In this document: positions 2,658-61,016 of the stretch, piece after piece
How positions within the stretch are numbered: position 1 is the stretch's first letter
How the letters are laid out: each line of letters opens with the position of its first letter
NCBI GenBank assembly: GCA_016193585.1
Contig: JACPRW010000002.1
Span: 1-61,982, forward strand
From: Candidatus Aenigmatarchaeota archaeon
GTDB taxonomy: Archaea; Aenigmatarchaeota; Aenigmatarchaeia; GW2011-AR5
Length of the DNA: 61,982 nucleotides
Direction: 5' to 3'
Made by a program: the position numbers and the translations under genes
The notes under the pieces: generated by a model
Databases searched by the model: none
Told to the model about the DNA's origin: nothing
What the model saw: the letters and a program-made list of their open reading frames with translations, nothing else

Positions 2658-4622
2658 ATGAGGAAAAAGGTGATACGGCTCACAGCTAAAAAAATAAAAA
2701 AGAGAACACGTGTTGCAAAGAAAGCAGCAAAGCAGCAAAAAAAGAGCAAAAATTTCTACATCACGACCGCTATTCCTTACGTCAACGCAGACCCGCACAT
2801 CGGGCATGCGCTCGAATTCATCCAGACGGACTGCATCAGGCGCTACTACCAGTTGTTAGGCTGCAAGACCTTTCTGACGACCGGTGCTGACGAGAATTCG
2901 CTCAAGAACGTGCAGGCGGCGGAGGCGAAGGGCGTGACGCCGCAGGAGCTCTGCGCAACCAATGCCGAAAAATTCAGGAGGCTCGCCATATCGCTCGGCA
3001 TGGAGTTTGATTCCTTTCTGCGCTCCTCTGTTCCAGAAGCGCACTTTCCCGGTTCGCAAAAACTCTGGAAGCGGTGCGCCAAGGACATCTACAAGAAGAA
3101 GTACAAGGGGCTGTACTGCGTCGGCTGCGAGGCGTTCTACACGGAAAGCGAGCTGAAGGAGGGCAGGTGCCCTGAGCACGACCGGAAGCCGGAAGAGGTC
3201 GAGGAGGAGAATTATTTCTTCAGGCTGTCGAAGTACCAGAAACAGCTTGAGCGGCTGATACGGACTAACGCTCTTCGCATCATCCCCGAAACGCGGAAGC
3301 ACGAGGTGCTCAGCTTCGTCAGAAGCGGGCTTGAGGATTTCTCGGTATCGCGAAGCACCAGCAGGGCGAAAGGCTGGGGCGTTCCGGTTCCCGGCGACGC
3401 GTCGCAGATCATGTACGTGTGGTTCGACGCGCTCAACATCTACCAGACTGCGGTCGGCTTCGGGACGAATGAGAAACTGTACAATCAGTGGTGGCCGTGC
3501 GATTGCCATGTCATCGGCAAGGGGATACTACGGTTCCATGCGGTGTACTGGCCGGCAATCCTGCTTTCTGCGGGTCTGCAGCCGCCGAAAAGCGTCTTCG
3601 TGCACGGCTACATCACCGTCGAGGGCAAGAAGATGTCCAAAAGCCTGGGCAACGTCGTCAACCCCGTGGAACTCATTGACCGGTGCGGTGCGGAGCGGCT
3701 GCGGTACTTCCTTCTTCACCTCCCGGCGTTTGACGACGGCGATTTCTCGGAGCGGGCGCTCGTGGAGCGGACGAACCACGAGCTCGTCGAGAATTTCTCA
3801 AACCTCTTTTACCGGATAACCTATTTCATCGAGAAGAACTTCGGAGGCACGGTGCCGAAGGGGAGGCCCGGGAAAAACGAAAAGGCGGTGCAGCGCCGGT
3901 TCACGGAGACGGCAGCGAAGAAATTCACGCCTGCCATGGAATCGTTCAGGCTGCACGAGGCGCTCGGGCATGTAATGGAGCTGTCCACCGAACTCAACAA
4001 GTATTTCCAGAATGCGAAGCCGTGGGAGCATCCTCGTGACGGCACGCCGCTGTACGTTTCAGTTAATCTGCTCAAGGACATATGCATACTCCTCTACCCG
4101 TTCCTGCCGCTCACGTCAGAGCGGGCGCTCAAGGCGCTCGGCTGCGGGCGCGACATCAATGCTATCGGTTCGCTTTCGCTCAAACCGGGCCACCGTATCA
4201 AGTCAGAGAAACTGTTCGAGAAGATCGAGCATAAGCCCGCGGCCATGGCAGCTGCGCCTACGGAAAAGGCTAAAAGCTCCGGAAAGGAAACAATACGCAT
4301 GGCGCGCGGGCTCATACCGTTCGAGGAGTTCGCCAAGCTTGACCTGCGCATCGGCACGATCACCGACGTGAAGGACCACCCCAACGCGGACAAGCTATAC
4401 GTCATGCAGGTTGATCTCGGAACTGAAAAAAAGCAGATCGTCAACGGCATGAAGGGCATCTATCGCAAGGACGAGCTTCAGAACAGGCAGGTCATCGTCG
4501 TCTGCAACATGGAGCCGAAAGACTTCAGGGGCGTCAGAAGCGATGCCATGCTCCTTGCCGCTGACGACGGAACGCTCCTCGTTCCGGTCAAGCCCCTCAT
4601 AAGCGGGATGAAGGTGCGGTAG
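2658..4622 (+). CDS. metG: Methionyl-tRNA synthetase with a C-terminal EMAP/Trbp111-like tRNA-binding domain and an unusual Lys-rich N-terminal extension
   Basis: HIGH-type motif PHIGHA, KMSKS motif, zinc knuckle CVGCEAFY...CPEH, and a C-terminal domain (LDLRIGTITDV...). There is no alternative in-frame start before the catalytic core. Confidence 0.9.
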   Translation: MRKKVIRLTAKKIKKRTRVAKKAAKQQKKSKNFYITTAIPYVNADPHIGHALEFIQTDCIRRYYQLLGCKTFLTTGADENSLKNVQAAEAKGVTPQELCATNAEKFRRLAISLGMEFDSFLRSSVPEAHFPGSQKLWKRCAKDIYKKKYKGLYCVGCEAFYTESELKEGRCPEHDRKPEEVEEENYFFRLSKYQKQLERLIRTNALRIIPETRKHEVLSFVRSGLEDFSVSRSTSRAKGWGVPVPGDASQIMYVWFDALNIYQTAVGFGTNEKLYNQWWPCDCHVIGKGILRFHAVYWPAILLSAGLQPPKSVFVHGYITVEGKKMSKSLGNVVNPVELIDRCGAERLRYFLLHLPAFDDGDFSERALVERTNHELVENFSNLFYRITYFIEKNFGGTVPKGRPGKNEKAVQRRFTETAAKKFTPAMESFRLHEALGHVMELSTELNKYFQNAKPWEHPRDGTPLYVSVNLLKDICILLYPFLPLTSERALKALGCGRDINAIGSLSLKPGHRIKSEKLFEKIEHKPAAMAAAPTEKAKSSGKETIRMARGLIPFEEFAKLDLRIGTITDVKDHPNADKLYVMQVDLGTEKKQIVNGMKGIYRKDELQNRQVIVVCNMEPKDFRGVRSDAMLLAADDGTLLVPVKPLISGMKVR

Positions 4623-4675: not shown

Positions 4676-4804
4676 GGGCCTGTAGCTCAGCCTGGTAGAG
4701 CGCCTGAACATGTGGCGAACCTCTTAATTTGGCTGAAGGTTTTTGATTGACCTTTTTCCAAAAAGGTCAGCAGGACGTCGCGAGTTCGAATCTCGTCGGG
4801 CCCA
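4676..4804 (+). tRNA. tRNA gene with a roughly 56-nt insert (intron). Anticodon not resolved by eye.
   Basis: Canonical acceptor stem GGGCCTG/CGGGCCC, D arm GCTCAGCCTGGTAGAGC, T arm GCGAG-TTCGAAT-CTCGT and discriminator A. The anticodon region is interrupted by an insert containing a perfect 10-bp hairpin, tgaccttttt-cc-aaaaaggtca. Confidence 0.75.
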
Positions 4805-8304: not shown

Positions 8305-8376
8305 AATGCATTTCTATCTTTCCTTCCCGATTAGTCCCTTTCCCATCTCATGCTTTAATATCTTTTTTTTCATTGT

Positions 8377-9447
8377 ATGCCCATGAAACTGACGGTTTTC
8401 GACAGGGGTTTCGGCTTTTTCGACCTGCTGCTCGTGTTCATACCCATTTCTATCGCCTTCGCGATGCTCAAGATGACCAATCTGCTGTTCATCGCGTCCA
8501 TACTCGCCATCATACCCCTTGCGCGGCTCATGGGCAGGGCCACGGAAGACCTGGCTGTACAAACGTCGCCCGTCATGGGGGCACTGCTCCTGGCGACGTT
8601 CGGCAACCTTATCGAGCTCATCATCGCGGTGCTTGCGCTGCGCGCCGGCCTCGATTCCGTCGTGAAAGCCTCCATCACTGGCTCGATAGTCGCGAATCTG
8701 CTCCTGCTCATCGGTCTGAGCATGTTCTTCGGCGGCCTCAAGTACAAGGAGCAGCGGTTCAACCGGGATTCTGCCAGCGTCTCGTCGACGATGCTCATCA
8801 TCGCCGTCACCGGTCTCGCGATACCGACCATCTACGCACTCACGACTGCTGGCAGGGAAATACAGCAGATCAGCACTATGGTGTCCGTGGTGCTCGCTGC
8901 CATCTACCTGCTTGGCATTGCATTCACGCTGTTCACCCACAAGCACCTCTTCGACCCAAGCGACCGCTACGTGGTCGAAAAGAAGGTGCGCTGGAGCAAG
9001 CGGTTCGCCCTTGCCGTCCTTTTCGGCGCAACCGTGCTGGTTGCGGCTGAGTCCGAGTTTCTTGTGAGCACCATCGTGTCGGCATCGAAAAGCTTCGGCA
9101 TATCCGAGCTGTTCATCGGACTCGTCATCGTCTCGATTATCACCAACATCGCGGAAAAAATGAGCGCCGTGGGCTACGCGATGCAGAACAAGGTCGACCT
9201 TTCGCTGGAAATAGGCACGTCGTCGGCAATCCAGATTGCGCTGTTCGTCGTTCCCGCACTTGTCCTCGCGAGCAACCTCCTCGGCAGGCCGCTCACGCTC
9301 GTCTTCACCATCTTCGAGCTCGCCGCCGTGCTGTTCGCCGTCATCATCACCAATTACCTGAGCGCCGACGGCAGGTGCAACTGGCTCGAGGGCGCGCAGC
9401 TGATAGCGGTCTATGCCATCATACTCATAGTTTTTTATTTCCTGTAG
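8377..9447 (+). CDS. Ca2+/H+ (CaCA family) antiporter
   Basis: Two alpha-repeat regions with GNLIELIIAVLAL and GIS.LFIGLVIVSIITNIAE motifs. About 10 TM segments. Confidence 0.8.
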   Translation: MPMKLTVFDRGFGFFDLLLVFIPISIAFAMLKMTNLLFIASILAIIPLARLMGRATEDLAVQTSPVMGALLLATFGNLIELIIAVLALRAGLDSVVKASITGSIVANLLLLIGLSMFFGGLKYKEQRFNRDSASVSSTMLIIAVTGLAIPTIYALTTAGREIQQISTMVSVVLAAIYLLGIAFTLFTHKHLFDPSDRYVVEKKVRWSKRFALAVLFGATVLVAAESEFLVSTIVSASKSFGISELFIGLVIVSIITNIAEKMSAVGYAMQNKVDLSLEIGTSSAIQIALFVVPALVLASNLLGRPLTLVFTIFELAAVLFAVIITNYLSADGRCNWLEGAQLIAVYAIILIVFYFL

Positions 9448-9468
9448 ACAAGAATAAGATGAGCACCA

Positions 9469-10404
9469 ATGGATTTCGCGAGCATCGCCCTCACTATCGC
9501 AGGGCTCATCCTGTTCGAGATAATCACGAGCATCGACAACGCGGTCATCAATGCCGACGTGCTCGCGACCATGTCCCAGCGGGCGCGGCGCTGGTTCCTG
9601 CTCTGGGGCATCTTCGTCGCCGTGTTCCTCATACGCGGCACCCTCCCCTTGCTCATCGTCTGGGCGGCGAACCCCTCGCTCGGCCCTGTGGGCGCGTTCA
9701 CCGCCATGTTCAGCGAGGACCCGGCGGTCGCGCACACCATCGAGCAATCATCGCCGGTGCTGCTCATCGGCGGCGGCGTGTTCCTCGTCCTTCTCTTCCT
9801 GCACTGGCTGTTCATGGAGCCAAAGCATTACGGCCTCCGCGGCGAGCGCTTCTTCCATTCGCAGGGGGTCTGGTTCTTCGCCGTGGCATCCCTGTTCCTC
9901 GCCGCCCTGGCGTGGTTCGCCATCAGCGAAAACCCGGCAATGGCGTTCGGCGCTGTCATCGGCTCCACCGCCTTCTTCATCGTGCACGGCTTCAAGCAGA
10001 ACGCGGAGAAGGCGGAGCAGGAGCTGCTCGACAAGTCGAAGACAAGCATGAGCGACTGGAGCAAGATACTGTACCTGGAGGTCATCGACGCGACCTTCTC
10101 GATAGACGGCGTCATCGGCGCGTTCGCCTTCACACTCCTCGTGCCGCTCATACTCATCGGCAACGGACTCGGCGCCATCGCCGTGAGGCAGATAACCGTG
10201 AGCAACATCGAGAACGTCAAGAAATACCGCTACCTCAAGAACGGCGCGATGTATTCCATACTCGTCCTTGGTTCCATCATGATCGCGGACAGCTTCGGCT
10301 TTGGCATCCCGGCATGGCTCTCGCCGCTCACGACCTTCGCCACCATTGGTTATTTCTTCTGGAAATCAAAGAGGGAAGTGAGCCTCCTGAAATCTGCGGC
10401 CTAA
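9469..10404 (+). CDS. TerC/DUF475-family integral membrane protein
   Basis: Multi-TM protein with an ITSIDNAVINA motif. Confidence 0.55.
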   Translation: MDFASIALTIAGLILFEIITSIDNAVINADVLATMSQRARRWFLLWGIFVAVFLIRGTLPLLIVWAANPSLGPVGAFTAMFSEDPAVAHTIEQSSPVLLIGGGVFLVLLFLHWLFMEPKHYGLRGERFFHSQGVWFFAVASLFLAALAWFAISENPAMAFGAVIGSTAFFIVHGFKQNAEKAEQELLDKSKTSMSDWSKILYLEVIDATFSIDGVIGAFAFTLLVPLILIGNGLGAIAVRQITVSNIENVKKYRYLKNGAMYSILVLGSIMIADSFGFGIPAWLSPLTTFATIGYFFWKSKREVSLLKSAA

Positions 10405-10438
10405 AAGACCGCAGTATTTATATCCGGCACGAAAATAG

Positions 10439-10726
10439 ATGATTATGCCGTCATTCGGTGAGGTGGTCATACATATCATCACCACCGTCATCTCGTCCAT
10501 CATCGACACGACGCTCGCGCTCGCGGCTGACGTCATGCTGCTCTTCCAGATCATCTCGGCAAACGTCGGCATCGCCCCCCTGCCCGTTATCATCGTAGCG
10601 ACCGCCGTGCTCGCCGCCATCATCTATTACCTGTTCCGGATGCTCAAGGGAGACCTGAAGCACCTCATCACCGCCATCGTCATCCTCGCCATCCTGCTGC
10701 TCCTCGCGCTCGTTTCTTCACGCTGA
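10439..10726 (+). CDS. Small membrane protein
   Basis: 95-aa hydrophobic ORF directly after the TerC-like gene. Confidence 0.4.
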   Translation: MIMPSFGEVVIHIITTVISSIIDTTLALAADVMLLFQIISANVGIAPLPVIIVATAVLAAIIYYLFRMLKGDLKHLITAIVILAILLLLALVSSR

Positions 10727-11103
10727 TTCGCGGGTTTTCATGGCTTTTCGAATTTTGTACTACTGTTTGCCTTTTGTTCCAAAAGCCTGATTATACAGGA
10801 AAGCGATTGATAGCGTATGCTGTCATGCATCGTCTGCGATGAAACGCGCGATGTGCTGCTCCAGAACATTAATGACGTGTGCATCAGCATCTGCAGCCTC
10901 CATGTTGTCCGGCAAGCCGCAGCTACATGAGCAGCACAATTGCAACGGGGTGTATCTCGATGGGCAGAAGAAAGAAACATGTCCGCCAACTCTCCTAGAT
11001 TCGGCAATTTCCTGGTGAGCCACGCAGCTTCCCTGGTGGGCGGGTGCGGTGCACGGCTTTGTCCTGCGCCTCCCTGCTCACCTTTTTATTTCTTCCCCGA
11101 CAC

Positions 11104-11502
11104 ATGGTATCTACTATGCGCCTTCAGAAGGAACACCTCGTCGCCATCGCCATCGTCGCTGCAAGCGTGCTCTACCTCGTTGTTATCGAGGACGTTTACG
11201 GCAAGCGCATAACCTTCAATATCGGCGGCCGCGACCTGCTGTTCAGCCCGTTTGACATCGTCCTCGTAACGACCAGCGTCATCGCATCGGCGCTCGTTGT
11301 CGTATCGTTCCTTGCGTACCAGCGGACAGCGGACAGAAAGCTGTTCGTGGTGTCGCTCGCGTTCATCTTCTTCACCATACGGAGCGTCCTCGACGTATTC
11401 GACAACTTCTTCCTCGCCGGCTACTCGTTTTTGAGCATCGCCAAGCGACTACTCGACCTCCTCATCGTGCTTGCCTTCCTGTTCGTCCTGTTCAGAAAGT
11501 GA
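11104..11502 (+). CDS. Membrane protein (4 TM)
   Basis: Hydrophobic ORF. The start is uncertain (M at 11104 or 11116). Confidence 0.5.
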   Translation: MVSTMRLQKEHLVAIAIVAASVLYLVVIEDVYGKRITFNIGGRDLLFSPFDIVLVTTSVIASALVVVSFLAYQRTADRKLFVVSLAFIFFTIRSVLDVFDNFFLAGYSFLSIAKRLLDLLIVLAFLFVLFRK

Positions 11503-11506
11503 TACG

Positions 11507-12025
11507 GTGGACCCGCTTGAGCTCGAGGTGCGGAAGAAGATATACGATTGCATAGTCAACTCGCCGGGCATTCACTTCCGCGAAATCCAGCGCCGCACCG
11601 GGACCGCGGTGGGCAACCTGGATTACCACCTGCATTTCCTCCGCAAGCGCGGCATCATACGGGCTGAGCAATCAGCAAAGCTGACGCGCTACTACCCGAT
11701 GACCAAGAACTGGAGCGAGGAGGAGAAGCAGATTCTCTCGCTGCTGCGCCAGCGTAACATCCGCCACATCGTGCTGCACCTGCTCACGCACCGGAAGGCC
11801 ATGCCGCGCAGCCTTGCGGAGGCTCTCGGCGTCTCGAACTCGACCATGTCGTGGTACCTGAAACAGATGACGGAGAAGAACGTCATCGCCTACACGAAAA
11901 AGGGGCGGTTCCGGACGTACCGGCTCACCGAGCCGGAGAAGATGGTGAATTACCTCGTCGTCTACCGCGCCAGCTTCCTCGACGAGCTTGTCGACAACTT
12001 CATCGACACTTGGGGGGAGAAGTAA
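11507..12025 (+). CDS. Tandem winged-helix transcriptional regulator
   Basis: Two wHTH units (GIHFREIQRRTGTAVGNLDYHLHFLRKRGII and AMPRSLAEALGVSNSTMSWYLKQMTEKNVI). Probable GTG start right after the upstream stop. Confidence 0.55.
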   Translation: MDPLELEVRKKIYDCIVNSPGIHFREIQRRTGTAVGNLDYHLHFLRKRGIIRAEQSAKLTRYYPMTKNWSEEEKQILSLLRQRNIRHIVLHLLTHRKAMPRSLAEALGVSNSTMSWYLKQMTEKNVIAYTKKGRFRTYRLTEPEKMVNYLVVYRASFLDELVDNFIDTWGEK

Positions 12026-12280
12026 TCACTTCTGGAGAAAGTACATGACCCCCACGATGAGCGAGATGAGGCCGGAGATGAGCGACAACGCCACAAAAAT
12101 CCATCCTACCATGATATATGGGCCGACAGCGCCTGCGATGGCTTCTCCTCCCGGAAGCGCGCCGAGCGCAGAAATGCCGGAACTGAGCTGGAGCATCACA
12201 TAGCCAAGTATGCCTGCCTGCAGCAGAAACAGGAGACCGGTGAACACGGAGCCGATGGCAGCGAACTTGTTGATGTCCAT
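12026..12280 (-). CDS. Small membrane protein (84 aa)
   Basis: MDINKFAAIGSVFTGLLFLLQAGILGY... Preceded by the conserved leader motif shared with pyk. Confidence 0.5.
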   Translation of the reverse strand: MDINKFAAIGSVFTGLLFLLQAGILGYVMLQLSSGISALGALPGGEAIAGAVGPYIMVGWIFVALSLISGLISLIVGVMYFLQK

Positions 12281-52720: not shown

Positions 52721-52861
52721 TTCTTGGAACGTTTCGGCCGCACGTGCACCATGTCGCCGTGCTTGCTGCCGCTACGGGATTTTCGTACCACTCGTTCGAG
52801 GCCATGTAAGAAAATTTCCATACTTCAAAGTAGGAAAAAGTTTAAATATACATTCATACAA

Positions 52862-53131
52862 AAGAGCAGTATGCACATCAAAAGGGCGGTTGGCGAAAAG
52901 GGGCAGGTCGTGGTGCCCAAGGACATACGGGAGCATCTAGGTCTCAGGCCCGGGACGAATGTGATATTCGAGGTCACAGGGAAGGACGTCGTCATCAAGG
53001 CGGAAAAAGACCCGAAAGATTTCGTGGAAGACTTTTGCAACGTCGTCCCGAAGAGCAAGCGGAAGAAGCTGGGCATAAAAAAAATCAAGCAGCTACTCGA
53101 TGAGCAATATGAAGAAGAGCTTATACGTTGA
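52862..53131 (+). CDS. vapB: AbrB/SpoVT-type antitoxin (VapB-like)
   Basis: GEKGQVVVPKDIREHLGLRPGTNV swapped-hairpin motif. Confidence 0.65.
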   Translation, partial: KSSMHIKRAVGEKGQVVVPKDIREHLGLRPGTNVIFEVTGKDVVIKAEKDPKDFVEDFCNVVPKSKRKKLGIKKIKQLLDEQYEEELIR

Positions 53132-53531
53132 CGCGAACGTGTTCATTGTCGCTGGCGTGTACCCCCAGGAAAGCCCCGAATTCAAAGCAGCGAAAAAACT
53201 GCTCTATGCGGTTTCCAGTGGCGAAGCCGAAGCTGCGACATCTCTGCTGACGTGGGATGAGCTTGTCTGGGTCGTCAGGCGAATGGCCGGCAATGAAGCA
53301 GCCGCGGAAGAAGGCAAACGGTTCCTTGAAATCCCGAACATGAAATTCCTTGGAGTGACTGAAAACATCATCCGGAAAGCGCAAAATATTACTGAGCGTT
53401 ACAACCTGAAACCCCGGGACGCTATCCACACGGCAAGCGCCATAGTGAACAATGCCGGCAGCATCGTCAGCGATGACGCTGACTTTGATGCCGTCAGGGG
53501 ACTGAAGCGAATTGCACTGGAGCGCGCGTAG
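53100..53531 (+). CDS. vapC: PIN-domain toxin (VapC-like)
   Basis: LYVDANVFIVAG N-terminus. Conserved D/E/D spacing. IVSDDADF. Confidence 0.65.
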   Translation: MSNMKKSLYVDANVFIVAGVYPQESPEFKAAKKLLYAVSSGEAEAATSLLTWDELVWVVRRMAGNEAAAEEGKRFLEIPNMKFLGVTENIIRKAQNITERYNLKPRDAIHTASAIVNNAGSIVSDDADFDAVRGLKRIALERA

Positions 53532-54333: not shown

Positions 54334-54531
54334 CCCGCGATAGTTTGGATTCAGAAGGAATCCGAACTGCCGTGGGGCGAAAACCCGCGATAGTTTGGAT
54401 TCAGAAGGAATCCGAACTGCCGTGGGGCGAAAACCCGCGATAGTTTGGATTCAGAAGGAATCCGAACTGCCGTGGGGCGAAAACCCGCGATAGTTTGAGC
54501 TTGTGCTCGAACTGCCGGGAAGAGGCATTTT
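54334..54531 (+). repeat. Tandem array: three exact 50-bp units plus one degenerate 48-bp unit. Each begins with CCCGCGATAG, the first 10 nt of the downstream tRNA, and carries a ggattcagaaggaatcc hairpin.
   Basis: Unit cccgcgatagtttggattcagaaggaatccgaactgccgtggggcgaaaa at 54334, 54384 and 54434. Degenerate copy at 54484. No spacers. Confidence 0.8.
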
Positions 54532-54651
54532 CCCGCGATAGCTCAACGGTAGAGCACCTGGCTGTAGCCAAGCACCGACGGTGCTACGGAATCCAGCCTG
54601 TGCTTTCAAGCAGTCACCAGGGGGTTCTGAGTTCAAATCTCAGTCGCGGGA
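54532..54651 (+). tRNA. Intron-containing tRNA, probably tRNA-Tyr(GUA), with a roughly 48-nt intron at 37/38
   Basis: Acceptor CCCGCGA/TCGCGGG. D arm GCTCAACGGTAGAGC. Anticodon stem CCTGG/CCAGG with loop CT-GTA-G|intron|A. T arm CTGAG-TTCAAAT-CTCAG. Discriminator A. A 4-bp helix CTGT/GCAG flanks the putative splice bulges. Confidence 0.7.
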
Positions 54652-54712: not shown

Positions 54713-56008
54713 ATGAACCAACCTGAGAAAATAGATGTCCACGGGTACGAAAGGCAGATAGAAATCCAGAGGAGTCTGCTGGAGAAAGCCCAAATAAAGG
54801 ATGACAACAGGCAGCTGATAAAGGACTTCATCAACTTCTGCGAGGTCGACCCTAAGGTAGGTCTGTCAAGGGTGCGTCTCTACTATTACACCCTCAGGCG
54901 TCTCGCCGAACTCACTGACAAAATTTTCAGGGAAATGGCCGAAGTGGACATAATTAACCTACTTGCCAAGCTTAAGGAGTACAAAACCTGCATCTGCAAG
55001 AAGAAGCAGAAAAACAGGGCTTCCTGCAAAGGCATGAAATGCCAAGGCAAAAGGTATTCTGAACAGTCTCTGCTAGACTTTAGGAAGGCCATAAGCAAAT
55101 TCTGGAGGTGGCTCTATTTTGACCAGTATTGCGGGCAAGCTCCGCCGCAAATAAGACGCATAAAGTGCGGTGCTCTCAGCAACAAGAAAGAACCTGATGT
55201 ATACAGCAAAGAGGAAATTAAGGCTCTCATAGACGGCATGACAACAATCAGGGACAAAGCCTTTTTCAGCTGCCTCTACGACCTGCAGTGCAGGGTATCT
55301 GAGCTTCTGTCACGGCAGATAAAGCATTTACGCTACACCGAAGGCGGAGACATCCAGATACTGATTGAAGCTGAAAAAACACAAATCAGCCATTGGGAAA
55401 CGCTCTTTGAGTCTGTTCCGCAGTTCGTGTCATGGCAGCGTCTTCATCCTATGCCATTCAATCCAAACGCACCCCTATGGACTGTAATGAAAAAATCAGG
55501 AAACATAGTCCCTCTCCACTATCCATTGGTTAGAAAGATATTCCTCAATGCGTGCAAAAGGCAGAATATAAGGCTGGGAAAGAGAAACAGCATACACATG
55601 ATACGCAAGAGCAAGGCTACTCACGACATGGCTGACGGTATACCTATAACCTTCATCGAGAGCAGGGGGAGCTGGACAAAAGGCAGCAGAGCACTCCAGA
55701 ATTGTTATCTTTCAGTTATCCAGAAGGACAAGGACAATGCATACAAAAAGAAGTACGGAATACCAGTAAACAACGGGCACGAAATTCCAATGGAACTCAA
55801 GACATGTACCCGATGCCACGTATACTTGGAAAACGCTGCGAAATTCTGCCATACGTGTGGGTTTCCCACAGACAGGTCTATAATGGCAAAGATGCAGGAA
55901 ATAAGCAAAGCTACAGCAGAACTGGTAGACAAAGACATGCTTTCAGAAATGATAAAGAAAATTGTCATGGCTGAACTGGAGAAGGATAAGGGTGCTAAAA
56001 GTGACTGA
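54713..56008 (+). CDS. Tyrosine recombinase/integrase with a C-terminal zinc ribbon
   Basis: Catalytic-box residues: R in LYDLQCRVSELLS, HMIRKSKATH, RGSW, Y in QNCYL. CTRCH...CHTCG ribbon. SD-like GAGGAGGTG before the ATG at 54713. Confidence 0.7.
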   Translation: MNQPEKIDVHGYERQIEIQRSLLEKAQIKDDNRQLIKDFINFCEVDPKVGLSRVRLYYYTLRRLAELTDKIFREMAEVDIINLLAKLKEYKTCICKKKQKNRASCKGMKCQGKRYSEQSLLDFRKAISKFWRWLYFDQYCGQAPPQIRRIKCGALSNKKEPDVYSKEEIKALIDGMTTIRDKAFFSCLYDLQCRVSELLSRQIKHLRYTEGGDIQILIEAEKTQISHWETLFESVPQFVSWQRLHPMPFNPNAPLWTVMKKSGNIVPLHYPLVRKIFLNACKRQNIRLGKRNSIHMIRKSKATHDMADGIPITFIESRGSWTKGSRALQNCYLSVIQKDKDNAYKKKYGIPVNNGHEIPMELKTCTRCHVYLENAAKFCHTCGFPTDRSIMAKMQEISKATAELVDKDMLSEMIKKIVMAELEKDKGAKSD

Positions 56009-56159: not shown

Positions 56160-57161
56160 CTATGTAGTAGTTGGTTCTTTTAGAAAATAGAGTTCATATG
56201 AAGTTCCAGTTCTTCTATCTTTGTAATCCCATTTTTCAACAGGGTTTTTTTTGATAAGTAACTTTCTCCAAAAGGTGTGAGCATTCTTTACAGTCGCTTC
56301 ACCGACTAATATTTCATTTTTATTAGCTACACTTTGAATTTTAGCTGCTATGTTTATGGTTTCCCCTATCAAATCCTTGTGCTTTTTTATTTTATCAGCA
56401 CCGACTGTAATTATTGTTGCCTCCCCAGAATCTAAGCCTATTCTAAAATTTAATTCCGGCAAGCCCTTTTCTTTTAGCATCGGATTTATACCATTGTATA
56501 TTAACAATTTCATTGAAGCTGCACAATCTAGTGCATTATCATTTTGTCCAATAAAATTAGGTTCTGGAAAATAAGCTATTATACCGTCACCCAAAAACTT
56601 TAATACGTAGCCATTAAATGCATGGATGAGCATTGCCATTTCCTTTAAAAATAACGAAATAATTTTTACATTTTCAGTACTGCTAAGGGTTTGACTCATT
56701 CGAGTTGAGTTGATTAGGTCTATTGATAGTATAACGAATTTTCTTTCTTCTTGCGGAAGAGTTTCTAAAAATTCCTCTGATACATCACTGAACTCATATT
56801 TGTTATCTTGAGTTCCATCGAGATGGTTTCTGATTTCTTGAATTCGTGACTTTATGTATTCTAGGGTGTCGTTAAATCTTCTTGGACTATAATAAAGTGG
56901 AGTGGGGCCACTTTTTTTAAAGGATTCTTCCATTGCTTTGAGAGGAATGAAAACATGATCAAACTTATCGTAAAAACCTTTCTCTCCATCGATTTCCTTT
57001 ATTTCGTATCTTTCTGGATCAGGTATAAGCTTTACTCTTAAAATTCTTTTTTCTTCGTCTACATTTACTATTTCCTGTATGAAATCCATTCTAATTGGCT
57101 CATCTTTTGTAGGCATAATAAAACCTCTACACATATGAAGATTAAAATTGAATAAAGTCAA
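56160..57161 (-). CDS. Class III nucleotidyl (adenylate/guanylate-type) cyclase with an N-terminal domain of unknown function (about 150 aa)
   Basis: Catalytic blocks ILSIDLINSTRMS (metal Asp), KFLGDGIIAYF (second Asp), RIGLDSGEATI, GETINIAAKIQS. Probable start at MPTKDEP (57116). Confidence 0.65.
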   Translation of the reverse strand: MTLFNFNLHMCRGFIMPTKDEPIRMDFIQEIVNVDEEKRILRVKLIPDPERYEIKEIDGEKGFYDKFDHVFIPLKAMEESFKKSGPTPLYYSPRRFNDTLEYIKSRIQEIRNHLDGTQDNKYEFSDVSEEFLETLPQEERKFVILSIDLINSTRMSQTLSSTENVKIISLFLKEMAMLIHAFNGYVLKFLGDGIIAYFPEPNFIGQNDNALDCAASMKLLIYNGINPMLKEKGLPELNFRIGLDSGEATIITVGADKIKKHKDLIGETINIAAKIQSVANKNEILVGEATVKNAHTFWRKLLIKKNPVEKWDYKDRRTGTSYELYFLKEPTTT

Positions 57162-57175
57162 ATATCTGCATCATT

Positions 57176-58294
57176 TCAAAAACTTTGTAGACTAATAAGT
57201 GTATCTTCGATAGCCTTATCTAAATCGACCTTGTAATGGCCTTTAATTTGGTTTTGGAATCTATTATCGATTCTCATATAATAAACCATAGTTTCTTCCC
57301 ATCTTGCCTCTCTATTACTGAGCCTTCTCAAAGAATCATTAACTAGCCATATTTTATCAGAAACCGAAATTAATGCATCCTTAAGTTTTTCTGTGCTTTT
57401 ACCCTTTATTGCATTGTCTAAACTTCTCACGTAGAAAGCAGAATTCAAATTTTTAATAGGATACTGTGGAATTATTAATGCTATTCTCTTACCTTTCTCT
57501 ATATCCCTCCTTTCGTTCATATGGAGCAATTCATCAAAGCCTCTTGAATCCCTTTGTATTCTTTCTACTTCTAATGCCAACGCATGTAAAAAATTTATTT
57601 GACACTCTGTATGTTTTCGTCTTCTATAGATTATATCCGCCAAAAGTACTATTAGAGGAATTAAAATTGCAATCCATATCGAGAGTAAGCTAGGAGACCT
57701 TGTTTCAAGTTCATATTTTGTAAAGACTCTATAGGAATATGCATTCGTTAATTCCCCATTTATATAAAAATTCGATGAGTAGCTTTCAGGAATTTCAGGC
57801 TCAATTACGTATAGGGTCGGTATTATTTCAAATCTTTTAGTTTCATTTAATAATGTTCCCGAACAATAATTTTCCTTATTGTTATTGTCCACATATTCCC
57901 ACGGCTTTTCAGGGCTTATTTGGTGAAATTCATAATAAGATTTAGGTGTCAGGTTATAATCTATCAAAATGCCATATGTATAAGGCGATGAGCAAAATAA
58001 GTGAGGACCGGGTCCAGCTCTGTCAAGCTGTATGCTGATTCTAGGTCTTACAAGGGTGCAGTTTCCCGTATTTAATATTCCTAGATTTTTTATAAAAAAT
58101 GAATCATCCTCACGTAGTTCTGGAGCTTGGTATAGAGATTTTTTACCTTCTGATATTGCTATAGTATCTAGGTATACATCAGCACTATAAACGCATTCGG
58201 CAAAGCTTATTGACGATATAGAAATCAAAAAAATCAATGCGTATAGAGTAGTTTTTGGAATTGTCATATTTTTACATATGTGGACTAACTTCAA
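57176..58294 (-). CDS. Single-pass membrane protein: signal peptide, about 200-aa extracellular domain, TM, about 150-aa cytoplasmic domain
   Basis: TM LLSIWIAILIPLIVLLADIIY. 14 bp upstream of the cyclase on the same strand. Confidence 0.5.
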   Translation of the reverse strand: MKLVHICKNMTIPKTTLYALIFLISISSISFAECVYSADVYLDTIAISEGKKSLYQAPELREDDSFFIKNLGILNTGNCTLVRPRISIQLDRAGPGPHLFCSSPYTYGILIDYNLTPKSYYEFHQISPEKPWEYVDNNNKENYCSGTLLNETKRFEIIPTLYVIEPEIPESYSSNFYINGELTNAYSYRVFTKYELETRSPSLLSIWIAILIPLIVLLADIIYRRRKHTECQINFLHALALEVERIQRDSRGFDELLHMNERRDIEKGKRIALIIPQYPIKNLNSAFYVRSLDNAIKGKSTEKLKDALISVSDKIWLVNDSLRRLSNREARWEETMVYYMRIDNRFQNQIKGHYKVDLDKAIEDTLISLQSF

Positions 58295-58412
58295 AAAACA
58301 ATAGCTTCCTTAGTAATAACTCTCTACCTGTATGTAAAAAAGGTCGTTTGAGCACTATGTTTTGATGAGACAATTATCTAATAAAAGGGTTTCTTACATA
58401 TGTAAAAAAGTC

Positions 58413-59126
58413 TTAATATTTACTTTTAATGAACTTCCTAAATTCTAAAACAGTCAGTACTATCAATGAAATAGTTGCTATGAATAAACTATTTCTGGAT
58501 ATTTCGATATTCAATTCTTCGTTACGTGACATGACTTCTATAGGTCTATCGAATGAGATATCACTTTTATCAACTGGAAATCTTTCAGTATTGCCTTTGA
58601 AAGAAGCCAATCTCATAAATATTTTAGTAGATGGGCGAGCTAATGTATTGTTGTAAAATACATTTCCACACGGGTATAAAGATGACTCTACACCTGCCGT
58701 GATATTTTCTATACCATTTTGCCAACAGCCCCATATAACTGTATCATCGCCGTAAGATGCCTGAATGCTAATGTCTATATTTGTATAGTTCCACACCATA
58801 GACCGAACTCCTACCTTGCAGGTTATGTTAGAAATGCTTGTGATAAATTGTGTGTTTGATTCACATGTAAGTTTAACAAAGGTATTTCCATTTACATCAA
58901 TTTCATTTGGCTCATAAATACCACTTTTTGTAAAGAATGGTGTCATGATTAATATATATGCAAAAACAGAAAACATCGATATCAAAGAAAACCAAAAAAC
59001 CTTACTTTTATTTCTCTTTAGCCATTTATTAATTAAATCTATACACATCATTCTTCTAATAAAAACAAAATTTATATAGATTCTTTGTAACCTTAACCAT
59101 CCTTTAACTTTGAAGCCAATATCCAC
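58413..59126 (-). CDS. Membrane protein with N- and C-terminal TM helices flanking an extracytoplasmic Cys-containing domain
   Basis: TMs FWFSLISMFSVFAYILIMTPFF and LFIATISLIVLTVLEF. Confidence 0.45.
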   Translation of the reverse strand: MDIGFKVKGWLRLQRIYINFVFIRRMMCIDLINKWLKRNKSKVFWFSLISMFSVFAYILIMTPFFTKSGIYEPNEIDVNGNTFVKLTCESNTQFITSISNITCKVGVRSMVWNYTNIDISIQASYGDDTVIWGCWQNGIENITAGVESSLYPCGNVFYNNTLARPSTKIFMRLASFKGNTERFPVDKSDISFDRPIEVMSRNEELNIEISRNSLFIATISLIVLTVLEFRKFIKSKY

Positions 59127-59311
59127 TGGTTCTGCCTACCTATCTTGAAATATTTGACTTTTCCGGCCTTCTCCAATCTGTGGAGATGCATCTGTGCAGT
59201 ATACCAAGCTAAACCTACATCTTTGGCTACCATCTCTGTTGTGGCAGAAAAAGGTATTCTTTTCAGATATGCCAGTATCTTTTCGTCTATTTCCTTCCAT
59301 GTTCGACGCAC
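59093..59311 (-). CDS. Small winged-helix DNA-binding protein
   Basis: ILAYLKRIPFSATTEMVAKDVGLAWYTAQMHLHRLEKAGKVKYF. Overlaps the downstream membrane-protein gene by 34 nt. Confidence 0.5.
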   Translation of the reverse strand: MRRTWKEIDEKILAYLKRIPFSATTEMVAKDVGLAWYTAQMHLHRLEKAGKVKYFKIGRQNQWILASKLKDG

Positions 59312-59396: not shown

Positions 59397-61016
59397 ATGG
59401 GTAATCAAATTCATAAAAACGCTCTAGTTTATTGTTTAGCGTTCCTTTTGTTTGCTAGTTTTCCAGTTTTAGCTGTTATAAACTTGCAATATTCTGTTTC
59501 CCCTTCAAGTAAAACTTTGTATTGGGATGAAACACTGACCGTAACTGCTTGGGTAAAAAATACGAATATGTTCACAGGAGGCTATTGCAGGGCTTCTGTT
59601 GTTGAAATACCATCCTCAGTTACTCAATGGATTTCTGTAGCTGCAGGACAATCTCAGAATATCTATTTGTACATACCGGCACCATCAACTGGACAGGCTA
59701 CAGTTCAGTACAATGTTAAAATAGAATGTTATGATAACGGCGACCCCACTATAGCTACAAAATACGGGACGGTAACTGTAACTTATCCTCCTATCGAACA
59801 ATTAGACGCCTATAACAGCCTAACATCGGCATCCGCTTTTGTTCAAGATGCTAACTCTGCAAAGACATCCGTACAATCCACCGTAAACGAGGCTGGTTCT
59901 TCTTGCACAAAAGCACAGACACAGTGGAACTCTGCAACTAACTATCTAAATACTGCTAATTCAAAATACTCGACAGCAAATAATGCCTACGCCTCCAAAA
60001 GCTTTAGCACTGCCCAATCAGATGCCAATAGTGCACAGCAGTCTGCTCTATCAGCTAAAAATAGTTTCAATACGGCATTAACAGAAGCAAATGCATGTCT
60101 GGGTCAAAAACAAGAGGCATCTGCAGCACTTACGAACACTAAAAACACGATAACAGAAGCCACAAATTCAAAAAATAGTGCTGAAAGCACTGTTAGTCAA
60201 GCCGGTTCTTCCTGCACATCAGCCCAGTCCAGCTGGACATCTGGAACAACTTTGATTGCAGACGCAGAGTCTAAATACTCAACCGCACAGAGCAATTACA
60301 ATTCTAATAACTACGAATCAGCCAAGACGAACGCCAACGCAGCTCAACAATCTGCTGTACAAGCGAAAAGTAATTTCAACGCTGCTTCAACATCAGCTTC
60401 AAGTTGTTTACAAGCCCAGAAGTCAGCAACTGGAAAAATTAGTTCTGCTCAAAATGCCATAAATCTAGCAGGCAGTCTTATAGAATCAGCTAAATCAATA
60501 GATGCTTCAGTTGAACAGTCAACGAAATATTTAGACTCTGCTAAAGAATATTTGGAACAAGCGAAGATTGCAGAAAGAAATAAAGATTCTGCTTCGTCCT
60601 CGAATAATGCGGATGCTGCATCTAGCAAAGCCATATTATCACAAAGCGAAGCCAAGAATTCTATAGCTAAAAGAGCACAAGAAATCATAGATAACTCAAA
60701 AGCAAAGCTTAGTGTGGTAGAAAGTACGGAAAGCAAATACAATGTTGATATACCAACCAGTTCCGTTAGTGAATCTATACAAAAAACAACAGACAGCTTA
60801 GCTTCTGGAGACTACTTTAAAGCTGCAGAAAACGCAAAGATTTTGTCGTCTCAAGCGGCTGAAGTAGAGGCTAGTGCAAACAAAATTACCGGACAAATAA
60901 CAGCGTCTAACACTACTTATCTTGCTGGGGGCATCGTGGCGGTTCTGCTAATCGGTGGCGGAATTTACTGGTTCAAATTCAGAAAAAAAGGAAAATCGAA
61001 GCCTAAGAGAGATTAA
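59397..61016 (+). CDS. Surface protein: signal peptide, CARDB-like N-domain, two about 100-aa Ser/Ala/Asn-rich tandem repeats, helical stalk, C-terminal TM anchor plus basic tail
   Basis: Repeat units begin ...VQSTVNEAGSSCTKAQTQWNSATNYLNTANSKYSTANNAY and ...STVSQAGSSCTSAQSSWTSGTTLIADAESKYSTAQSNY. C-terminus GGIVAVLLIGGGIYWFKFRKKGKSKPKRD. Confidence 0.6.
   Translation: MGNQIHKNALVYCLAFLLFASFPVLAVINLQYSVSPSSKTLYWDETLTVTAWVKNTNMFTGGYCRASVVEIPSSVTQWISVAAGQSQNIYLYIPAPSTGQATVQYNVKIECYDNGDPTIATKYGTVTVTYPPIEQLDAYNSLTSASAFVQDANSAKTSVQSTVNEAGSSCTKAQTQWNSATNYLNTANSKYSTANNAYASKSFSTAQSDANSAQQSALSAKNSFNTALTEANACLGQKQEASAALTNTKNTITEATNSKNSAESTVSQAGSSCTSAQSSWTSGTTLIADAESKYSTAQSNYNSNNYESAKTNANAAQQSAVQAKSNFNAASTSASSCLQAQKSATGKISSAQNAINLAGSLIESAKSIDASVEQSTKYLDSAKEYLEQAKIAERNKDSASSSNNADAASSKAILSQSEAKNSIAKRAQEIIDNSKAKLSVVESTESKYNVDIPTSSVSESIQKTTDSLASGDYFKAAENAKILSSQAAEVEASANKITGQITASNTTYLAGGIVAVLLIGGGIYWFKFRKKGKSKPKRD

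Follow-up and report, generated by a model that had tools for sequence, protein, structure and literature searches.

What does the AT-rich end of this 61,982-nucleotide stretch of archaeal DNA (hereafter the window) encode: a Pycsar-type immune system, or a nucleotide cyclase that travels beside unrelated genes? A Pycsar system is by definition a cyclase with an adjacent effector that is activated by its cyclic nucleotide. A sequence-only reading had described four co-directional minus-strand genes, encoding a winged-helix (wHTH) regulator, two membrane proteins and a class III cyclase, as one candidate module of this type. The reading frames were reproduced and the cyclase was confirmed; the module was not supported. 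The interpretation that we favour, at somewhat better than even chances, is that the window carries a solo PycC-like cyclase as cargo of a mobile element.

The setting of the genes is that of an integrative element. The GC fraction is 0.32-0.37 over 56-60 kb versus about 0.55 elsewhere (Aenigmarchaeota MAG), and the border region contains a tRNA gene preceded by a perfect tandem repeat (Table 1). Every copy of the 50-bp repeat unit opens with the 10 nt that begin the tRNA, the anticodon of which was read by eye as GUA (Tyr). Misled by the intron, ARAGORN reported no tRNA at this position; Rfam detects the gene. Only 61 nt separate the end of the tRNA (54651) from the start of the integrase gene (54713), and this protein also matches XerA-like recombinases in NCBIfam (3.4e-16) and the PHROG integrase family (1.2e-13). 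The integrase and cyclase genes are convergent, with 151 nt between them. A tyrosine integrase at the 3' end of a tRNA gene and a break in composition, the features by which tRNA-targeting integrative elements are recognized, are thus both present, and the earlier claim of horizontally acquired DNA beside an integrase is supported. The intron-containing tRNA is probably the integration target. A second copy of its 3' end, as expected for an att repeat, was not found within the window, where the contig stops at 61982, inside the island. The gene of the 539-residue surface protein is divergent from the wHTH gene. Viral hallmark genes were absent from the island, and PHROG and NCBIfam scans of its proteins gave nothing specific. 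Interpretation as a provirus was abandoned in view of these scans and because 2.9 million viral contigs contained no full-length member of the cyclase family. On balance, the region can be described as part of an AT-rich integrative element, namely the end nearest the integrase, adjoining a tRNA gene in an Aenigmarchaeota genome, with the solo PycC-related cyclase as its conserved cargo.

Table 1. Features of the island and its border, in window coordinates.
Feature	Position	Strand	Basis or remark
Perfect 50-bp tandem repeat, 3.3 copies	54334..54497	+	5' of tRNA; island border region
Intron-containing archaeal tRNA	54532..54651	+	Rfam RF00005, 58 bits
Tyrosine recombinase/integrase, 431 aa, C-terminal zinc-ribbon-like tail	54713..56008	+	PF00589, E = 9e-9
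Solo PycC-like class III nucleotide cyclase, 318 aa	56160..57116	-	PF00211, PADLOC PycC
Membrane protein, 372 aa (363 aa in database)	57176..58294	-	Sequence and AF2 model
CTTTTTTACATA in two identical copies, 68 nt apart	58331..58410	-	Spacer upstream of 372-aa gene
Near-orphan ORF, 237 aa, N- and C-terminal TM, Cys-rich ectodomain	58413..59126	-	
FaeA-like winged-helix DNA-binding protein, 72 aa	59093..59311	-	PF04703, 34.6 bits (cut-off 20.7), residues 10-59
Predicted surface protein, 539 aa: signal peptide, Ser/Ala/Asn-rich repeats, C-terminal TM	59397..61016	+	Sub-threshold family matches only
Lipoprotein-like coiled-coil protein of the island, 274 aa	61025..61849	+	

The cyclase scores above the curated cut-off of PF00211 (E = 2.8e-14) and contains the two metal-binding aspartates D133 and D177 (numbering of the 318-residue protein) and the Asn255/Lys259 pair, with the canonical spacing D-x6-N-x3-K. 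Judged by its sequence, it has every residue required for a homodimeric class III cyclase, as had been claimed. The catalytic residues that are invariant in the family are D133, K173, G176-D177-G178, R225, D229 and K259. The last of these replaces the transition-state arginine, a substitution shared with 8jsf, an active cytidylate cyclase; the canonical asparagine is a serine in one subclade of the family. The protein was modelled by AF2 with a pLDDT of 91.6. Its catalytic domain (residues ~124-290) follows an N-terminal domain of five β-strands and helices, with invariant residues D11, P34, R36 and Y37. The existence of such an extension had been recognized, but its length is about 120 residues rather than the 150 proposed. 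This β domain is strongly conserved in the family, unique to it, and lies outside every PADLOC model for PycC.

Comparison with characterized enzymes suggests a relationship to PycC combined with a different base preference. The PADLOC PycC model gave 84 bits, against 54 for the generic Pfam cyclase model, over residues 137-323 of the 333-residue ORF and profile positions 77-270 of 340. Among PDB entries, EaPycC (8jsf) gave the best profile match (E = 7.8e-22). In the structural comparison CyaB of P. aeruginosa (PDB 3r5g) ranked at the top, while EaPycC gave the longest alignment (224 residues vs 189 for CyaB). EaPycC and the window protein share the class III fold, both metal-binding aspartates, the lysine in place of the canonical transition-state arginine within an LA-K-Q motif, and the motifs GDGL-x-YF and DNA-L. 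In EaPycC, a clade E enzyme, CTP is specified by F100, R142 and Q144 (PMC11224242). These residues align with S131, K173 and L175 of the cyclase; clades B and D were compared by numbering only. The pyrimidine-specifying residues of the characterized PycC (cCMP synthase) are not conserved in the alignment of the cyclase family. The base-specifying pair is instead Lys173/Asp248, of the purine type, and the family retains Asp248, which EaPycC lacks. CyaB likewise has a complete catalytic core and a lysine at the adenine-contacting position; it differs in the transition-state residue, which is lysine in the cyclase, and in the N-terminal domain. The earlier comparison with Pycsar is supported by the best-matching models, and not by the CTP-specifying residues or the search for an effector.

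The arrangement of the four genes is looser than it appeared. The overlaps and 14-bp spacing that had been noted are those of the longest reading frames, in which the cyclase ORF extends to 57161 (333 codons). The most likely start of the cyclase is the ATG at 57116, which is preceded by a GAGG motif, yields the family-wide MP.. N-terminus and agrees with the database protein P0001 (318 aa). The spacer to the 372-aa gene is then 59 nt; with the two genes co-directional, this distance is compatible with co-transcription. The 237-aa and 372-aa genes are 118 nt apart, or 145 nt if the database start is used for P0121, and the spacer between them includes the CTTTTTTACATA pair, which may be a promoter or operator. 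The 34-nt overlap of the wHTH and 237-aa genes hinges on a GTG start. The true start of the 237-aa gene is probably near 59051, at an in-frame ATGATG with a TATA-like box some 25 nt upstream, in which case a gap of about 40 nt separates it from the wHTH gene.

Assignment of the smallest protein as a wHTH regulator is secure at the PF04703 score, and the description of its two neighbours as membrane proteins lacking a recognizable motif was also correct. Two transmembrane segments are predicted in each, and neither matched a Pfam, PADLOC, NCBIfam or PHROG family. The 372-aa protein consists of a signal or anchor helix, a CARDB-like β-sandwich ectodomain, one transmembrane helix and a cytoplasmic four-helix bundle. 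A cNMP-binding or known pore-forming fold was not found in its AF2 model or by fold search; the cytoplasmic part is a generic bundle and not a CNB β-barrel. Against viral structures the fold search returned only marginal β-sandwich matches. PADLOC, Pfam and an iterated search with two PycTM proteins revealed no PycTM, PycTIR or cNMP-binding domain in the window, in agreement with the earlier remark that the partners do not resemble these effectors.

The cyclase belongs to a family of proteins of roughly 315 residues, with 143 matching database clusters, most of them aligned over ~94% of the length. Members are scattered over more than 15 archaeal and bacterial phyla, with hosts that include Aenigmatarchaeota, Bathyarchaeia, Nitrososphaeria, Thermoplasmata, Omnitrophota, Cyanobacteria, Acidobacteriota and Planctomycetota. 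This patchy distribution across both domains is consistent with horizontal transfer. Among 99 non-redundant loci no neighbour was conserved, and no neighbouring protein matched when the additional domains of fused members P0092, P0099 and P0118 were used in a Rosetta-stone search. An integrase occurs within 7 kb of the cyclase in 15 of the 99 loci (14 of 58 when only loci of at least 6 kb are considered), and a gene of the restriction-modification methylase type is nearby in 11 of the 99. Among the neighbours are a type IIG enzyme, type I restriction-modification operons, single-gene defence candidates (SoFic, 2e-47; PDC-S33, 1e-100; PDC-S35, 3e-85), and ThsB-like TIR, RES, HD-CE and MADS components. 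In locus L013 a TIR protein encoded downstream of the cyclase was considered as a PycTIR, but it is a full-length PDC-S35 member that matches PycTIR at the level of the TIR domain only, and is therefore not evidence of a canonical Pycsar pair. Some loci lie among plainly housekeeping genes (KdtA/LpxK, CdvA, an epimerase, a tRNA synthetase), and many bacterial members, located in restriction-modification operons of the chromosome, have no integrase close by. In three islands of DPANN type (the window, L007 and L005) the cyclase lies 0.15-1.7 kb from a related integrase, the window enzyme being 25-28% identical to the other two, while the remaining cargo differs. These observations bear out the proposed mobile-island and defence-type setting, which the family shares with PycC. 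We regard it as reasonably probable that this is a distinct, widespread, uncharacterized and horizontally mobile family related to PycC.

In view of these data, three other explanations have to be weighed. A single Pycsar-type module, in which the cyclase product would activate the two membrane proteins as novel effectors, would account for the common strand, the short spacer between the 372-aa and cyclase genes, and the co-directional gene that also lies immediately upstream of the cyclase in its closest relatives. In clade F Pycsar systems the PycTM gene precedes that of PycC (PMC13069673), an order which the window resembles only superficially, since its membrane proteins are not homologues of PycTM and differ in architecture. 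The sequence-only reading had itself named a lack of co-occurrence among the observations that would count against a module, and the partners do not co-occur: the 372-aa family profile matched no other cyclase locus among 167 loci scanned, and this family is found without a cyclase in three other independent contexts (L003, L168 and L170). The 237-aa protein has a homologous neighbour pairing only with a 372-like gene (L003/L004). In L007 and L005, the loci of the closest cyclase relatives, the upstream genes are unrelated in sequence and architecture to those of the window. L005 has a wHTH homologue of 52% identity at a distance of 1.1 kb from its cyclase. Membrane proteins are not enriched beside the cyclase; they make up 28% of the neighbours at position -1, the same as at nearby positions. 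The 118-145-nt and ~40-nt spacers with promoter-like elements also speak against a tight operon, and together with the missing effector domains this makes a joint module highly improbable. What looks like a four-gene operon is probably separable cargo that came to lie together by chance. That the wHTH and membrane-protein genes are cargo in their own right, and not effectors of the cyclase, we hold with moderate confidence; they probably encode cell-surface proteins with their own regulator.

If not part of a module, the cyclase could be an ordinary regulatory adenylate cyclase, horizontally acquired, with a ligand-sensing N-terminal domain, a function in cAMP signalling and no role in conflicts with viruses or other elements. 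The purine-type Lys173/Asp248 pair, the canonical spacing of the catalytic residues, the top structural rank of CyaB, the absence of a linked effector and the housekeeping contexts would all fit. Unlike CyaB, the family is found in mobile or defence islands and not in a stable regulatory locus, and the repeated placement in restriction-modification operons and beside integrases and single-gene defence systems, the patchy distribution in two domains and the higher score of the PycC models all point elsewhere. So do two distant bacterial loci (L037 and L029), where a family member is clustered with a second cyclase, which is PycC-like, and with a PycTM scoring above the cut-off of Pfam PF18967, an arrangement similar to two-gene Pycsar systems with PycTM except for the additional cyclase. 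We consider this explanation possible but unlikely. The cyclase might also serve the mobile element rather than its host, through host manipulation, counter-defence by making or mimicking a signal, or superinfection exclusion in concert with the surface proteins of the island. Retention of the cyclase near the integrase in the three DPANN islands, with other cargo varying, and the several surface proteins encoded here would agree with this. It conflicts with the lack of full-length members in viral contigs, of viral hallmark genes and PHROG matches in the island, and of integrases near the many bacterial members in chromosomal operons, and we judge it decidedly unlikely.

The favoured interpretation, a solo PycC-like cyclase as mobile-element cargo, suggests how the protein might act. 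The N-terminal domain would be a regulatory or sensing part, and a trigger, for example infection or stress, would cause the cyclase dimer to make a 3',5'-cyclic mononucleotide. Judged by Lys173/Asp248, the product would be a purine nucleotide, probably cAMP and not cCMP or cUMP. The signal could act on a receptor encoded elsewhere, or consumption of the nucleotide could itself be the effect; the benefit would go to the host of the element or to the element. A defence role is plausible on the raw counts of its neighbours. The canonical effector with a CNB-TM or CNB-TIR architecture is absent from the window and from about 97 of the 99 loci, PycTM being found in only two, and the cyclase-effector pairing that is conserved across genomes in Pycsar was not found for the window cyclase. 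More speculatively, and in our estimate with a rather small chance of being correct, the family could be a previously unrecognized, effector-less branch of cyclic-mononucleotide immunity that integrative elements and defence islands carry across the boundary between archaea and bacteria. Its N-terminal domain would sense infection, it would act via receptors in trans or via nucleotide consumption, and in a few bacteria it would have joined a Pycsar system with PycTM as a second cyclase that brings a sensor, making three genes in all.

For annotation, the locus advises caution: a match to a Pycsar cyclase HMM together with membrane proteins on an island does not make a Pycsar system. If the family is immune-related, an almost always solo PycC-like cyclase would broaden what counts as cyclic-mononucleotide defence, and its N-terminal domain would be a candidate sensor domain. 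Second-messenger enzymes of DPANN archaea are essentially unknown (PMC10249747), and with such a role these organisms would gain a testable cyclase. Should the immune branch prove real, it would represent the first immune signalling based on a class III cyclase in DPANN archaea, possibly with a purine signal.

The four minus-strand ORFs lie exactly where the sequence-only reading had placed them (see the table), and its domain calls hold: PF00211 matches the product of the last gene, a class III cyclase, at 53.6 bits; the first gene encodes a regulator whose FaeA-like winged helix scores 34.6 bits, above the cut-off of 20.7; and each of the two middle proteins, described as lacking a known motif, has two predicted TM segments and zero family matches. 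The proposed spacing, with overlaps or a 14-bp gap, was right in part, since 118-145 nt separate the 237-aa and 372-aa genes. The cyclase most probably begins at ATG 57116, leaving 59 nt rather than 14 nt to the 372-aa gene; a GAGG motif precedes this start, the resulting N-terminus is the family-conserved 'MP..', and the product agrees with the database protein of 318 aa. The 237-aa gene contains an in-frame ATGATG preceded by a TATA-like box, and with a start at this position its overlap with the winged-helix gene disappears. The 62-kb window contains the 12-mer CTTTTTTACATA twice and no more, against 0.17 occurrences expected, at 58331-58342 and 58399-58410, 68 nt apart. Both copies fall in the 118-145-nt spacer upstream of the 372-aa gene and could represent an operator or the duplication of a promoter element.

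Features of the island and its left border
Feature	Position	Strand	Remarks
Perfect 50-bp tandem repeat	54334-54497		directly upstream of tRNA; 3.3 copies, 100% identity
Intron-containing archaeal tRNA	54532-54651		Rfam, 58 bits; left of the four ORFs
Tyrosine integrase	54713-56008		PF00589, E = 9e-9; also XerA-like and PHROG integrase matches
Class III cyclase	56160-57116	-	from the probable start; the ORF as first placed reaches 57161
372-aa protein	57176-58294	-
237-aa protein	58413-59126	-
Winged-helix protein	59093-59311	-
Two genes, 539 and 274 aa	59397-61849		transcribed divergently; envelope-protein look

The GC content is 0.32-0.37 across the four ORFs versus about 0.55 in the preceding 10 kb. 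The tRNA at the island border reads by eye as tRNA-Tyr (GUA), interrupted after position 37 by an intron of about 49 nt; a second intron-containing archaeal tRNA lies at 4676-4804, and Rfam detects both whereas ARAGORN detects neither. Each 50-bp repeat unit opens with the first 10 nt of the tRNA (CCCGCGATAG) and holds a GGATTC...GAATCC hairpin. Possible origins of the array are reiteration of 5' tRNA fragments, duplication of a leader or promoter, and recombination scars. Because the contig is as long as the window, the island runs off its end, and the tRNA 3' end is present only once in the window. A short ORF at the contig end (61846-61974, minus strand) carries …NNTPHSSLKYMTPLEVF… and by eye resembles the C-terminus of an rve-type catalytic domain from a transposase; if this reading holds, the putative transposase would explain the assembly break. 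Just outside the island, an overlapping pair of small genes (52724-53531) by eye resembles a VapBC-like system, with an antitoxin of AbrB/SpoVT type and a PIN-domain toxin.

The cyclase is not an orphan protein. It is matched by 143 database clusters, most of which align over about 94% of the protein and are about 305-320 aa long; in a 32-member family alignment the mean column identity is 53%. Invariant catalytic residues are D133, K173, G176-D177-G178, R225, D229, K259 and Q261. The first 120 residues are as constrained as the catalytic part (D11, P34, R36 and Y37 invariant), with motifs resembling PDPERYE and YFDKFD. The AlphaFold2 model built with the family alignment is confident (pLDDT 91.6, pTM 0.90) and places a five-stranded beta domain (residues 12-58) and three helices before the cyclase core. 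Every residue needed for catalysis is present on a single chain, so a homodimer working by the established class III mechanism would form two complete active sites. Members occur in archaea (Aenigmatarchaeota, Bathyarchaeia, Nitrososphaeria, Thermoplasmata, other Euryarchaeota) and in bacteria (Omnitrophota, Poribacteria, Ignavibacteria, Terriglobia, Lentisphaerae, Armatimonadota, Synechococcus/Cyanobium, Actinobacteria, KSB1, Scalindua, Elusimicrobiota, Planctomycetota), a spread best explained by horizontal transfer. The viral contigs scanned held no full-length member. Nitrosopumilus-type members (locus L012, 9995-11695; proteins P0092 and P0099) are extended at the C-terminus by a conserved segment of about 250 aa, which has zero Pfam matches and resembles no neighbour gene in the other loci.

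The relation to the Pycsar cyclases can be viewed from two sides. Among HMMs, those of PADLOC for PycC match the cyclase best (2.4e-24, 84 bits), above the generic Pfam model, and the cytidylate cyclase 8jsf is its best profile match among solved structures (7.8e-22) and has the unusual Lys-for-Arg 'LA-K-Q' motif in common with it. However, the PycC matches are confined to the catalytic domain, and F100, R142 and Q144, shown to specify CTP in EaPycC (PMC11224242), are replaced by S131, K173 and L175. Asp248, kept in the family seven residues before Asn255 and paired with the invariant Lys173, occupies the adenine-contacting Asp position of canonical adenylate cyclases. In class III cyclases, such a Lys/Asp pair is as a rule linked to adenine. 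Retention of Lys173 and Asp248 together with replacement of the CTP-specifying residues predicts, with low confidence, a purine cNMP as product, probably cAMP. Judged by sequence, the PycC comparison argues both ways, and assignment to Pycsar would not be a clean one.

Genomic context was compared for 28 full-length loci from species-representative genomes, 80 from metagenomes, L005 (one of the closest relatives) and the window; genes were called, all neighbours clustered and near-duplicates removed, leaving 99 loci. Clustering revealed no conserved neighbour of the cyclase among them and only two recurrent clusters, tyrosine integrases (15/99 loci, or 14/58 of those of at least 6 kb; nine within about 2.3 kb) and restriction-modification methylase-type genes (11/99). 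A type IIG enzyme lies directly upstream of the cyclase in L026 and L166, and in L032, L103 and L155 the cyclase sits between subunits of type I R-M operons, which resembles known insertions of extra defence genes there. In these bacterial loci the operon also holds a DUF3644/HepT-like (PDC-S19-like) gene. Further neighbours include full-length SoFic (2e-47), PDC-S33 (1e-100) and PDC-S35 (3e-85), a TIR resembling ThsB, one protein with a RES domain, one of HD-CE/HATPase type, and components of MADS. All of these neighbours, the R-M genes included, are defence genes or candidates independent of the cyclase rather than its partners. Some loci have housekeeping neighbours (KdtA/LpxK, CdvA, an epimerase, a tRNA synthetase). 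In three DPANN-type islands a related integrase (25-28% identity) lies 0.15-1.7 kb from the cyclase at the element border, which adjoins the tRNA in the window and an RNase P RNA gene in L005. In the latter (2791-4295) the island abuts this archaeal gene just after the 23S rRNA, which suggests that structured-RNA genes besides tRNAs serve as integration sites.

For the 372-aa protein a word-index search gave one homologue and exhaustive HMMER 41 representatives of the same layout. The AlphaFold2 model from their alignment is confident (pLDDT 91.5) and shows an anchor helix, an ectodomain folded as a beta-sandwich (residues 36-191), one TM helix continuing as a long helix, and an all-alpha cytoplasmic domain. 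Among all ORFs of 167 fetched loci, the family profile matched only in the window and in L003/L004; a 12.6-bit match in L097 was noise. L003/L004 have a 237-like gene (48% identity over 50 residues) followed by a 372-like gene (54% identity, TM and cytoplasmic part), and neither cyclase nor integrase is present. More distant 372-family genes in L168 and L170 also occur without any cyclase, and what lies upstream of them has no relation to the 237-aa protein. Among the closest relatives of the cyclase, the upstream gene encodes a soluble helical protein of 380 aa in L007 and, in L005, a 541-aa protein with Zn-ribbon, TM and beta-sandwich parts; both are unrelated to the proteins of the window. 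Membrane proteins at the -1 position (28%) are within the 17-38% range of other nearby positions. A 52%-identical homologue of the winged-helix protein lies 1.1 kb from the L005 cyclase, so this gene may be part of the element backbone rather than of a cyclase operon.

A connection to Pycsar does exist elsewhere. In L037 (Pseudovibrio sp., 10001-12217) a divergent full-length family member comes first, next an overlapping second cyclase (255 aa), and then a 180-aa protein scoring above the Pfam PycTM cut-off (37.7 vs 27.2 bits; PADLOC PycTM 1.7e-14). The same three components occur in L029 (Acidobacteriota, 8341-10909), with the family member divergent from the other two; the second cyclases (2e-46) and PycTM proteins (3e-42) are orthologous. 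The second cyclases are shorter and PycC-like. These clusters look like a two-cyclase Pycsar variant. Iterated searches with the second cyclase and PycTM found matches neither in the window nor in any other locus, so the Pycsar link is real in about 2% of sampled loci, with the family member as additional cyclase; otherwise it is solo.

The specific proposal of a new four-gene Pycsar variant should be given up, because the 372-family occurs without the cyclase and the upstream genes are not kept: the observation of four genes is real, yet the functional unit is not these four genes. The 539- and 274-aa proteins look like envelope proteins, with an N-terminus of signal or lipoprotein type, coiled-coil repeats rich in Ser/Ala/Asn and a TM segment at the C-terminus; one has a sub-threshold match to a surface-exclusion domain. 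With the 237- and 372-aa proteins, most of the visible cargo would be cell-surface protein by sequence. The winged-helix, 237-aa and 372-aa genes, like these two, are separable cargo, and the membrane and surface-type proteins among them are probably envelope proteins. The evidence best fits an integrative element with a solo PycC-like cyclase beside its integrase, a member of a distinct family whose neighbourhoods elsewhere mark it as mobile and associated with defence islands. The enzyme would be a regulated homodimeric cyclase with its N-terminal domain as sensor, and its probable purine cNMP could act on an unlinked receptor, or the effect could arise through nucleotide use. The family is uncharacterised, with no full-length model in PADLOC, Pfam or NCBIfam, and is thus a reasonable candidate for experimental testing.
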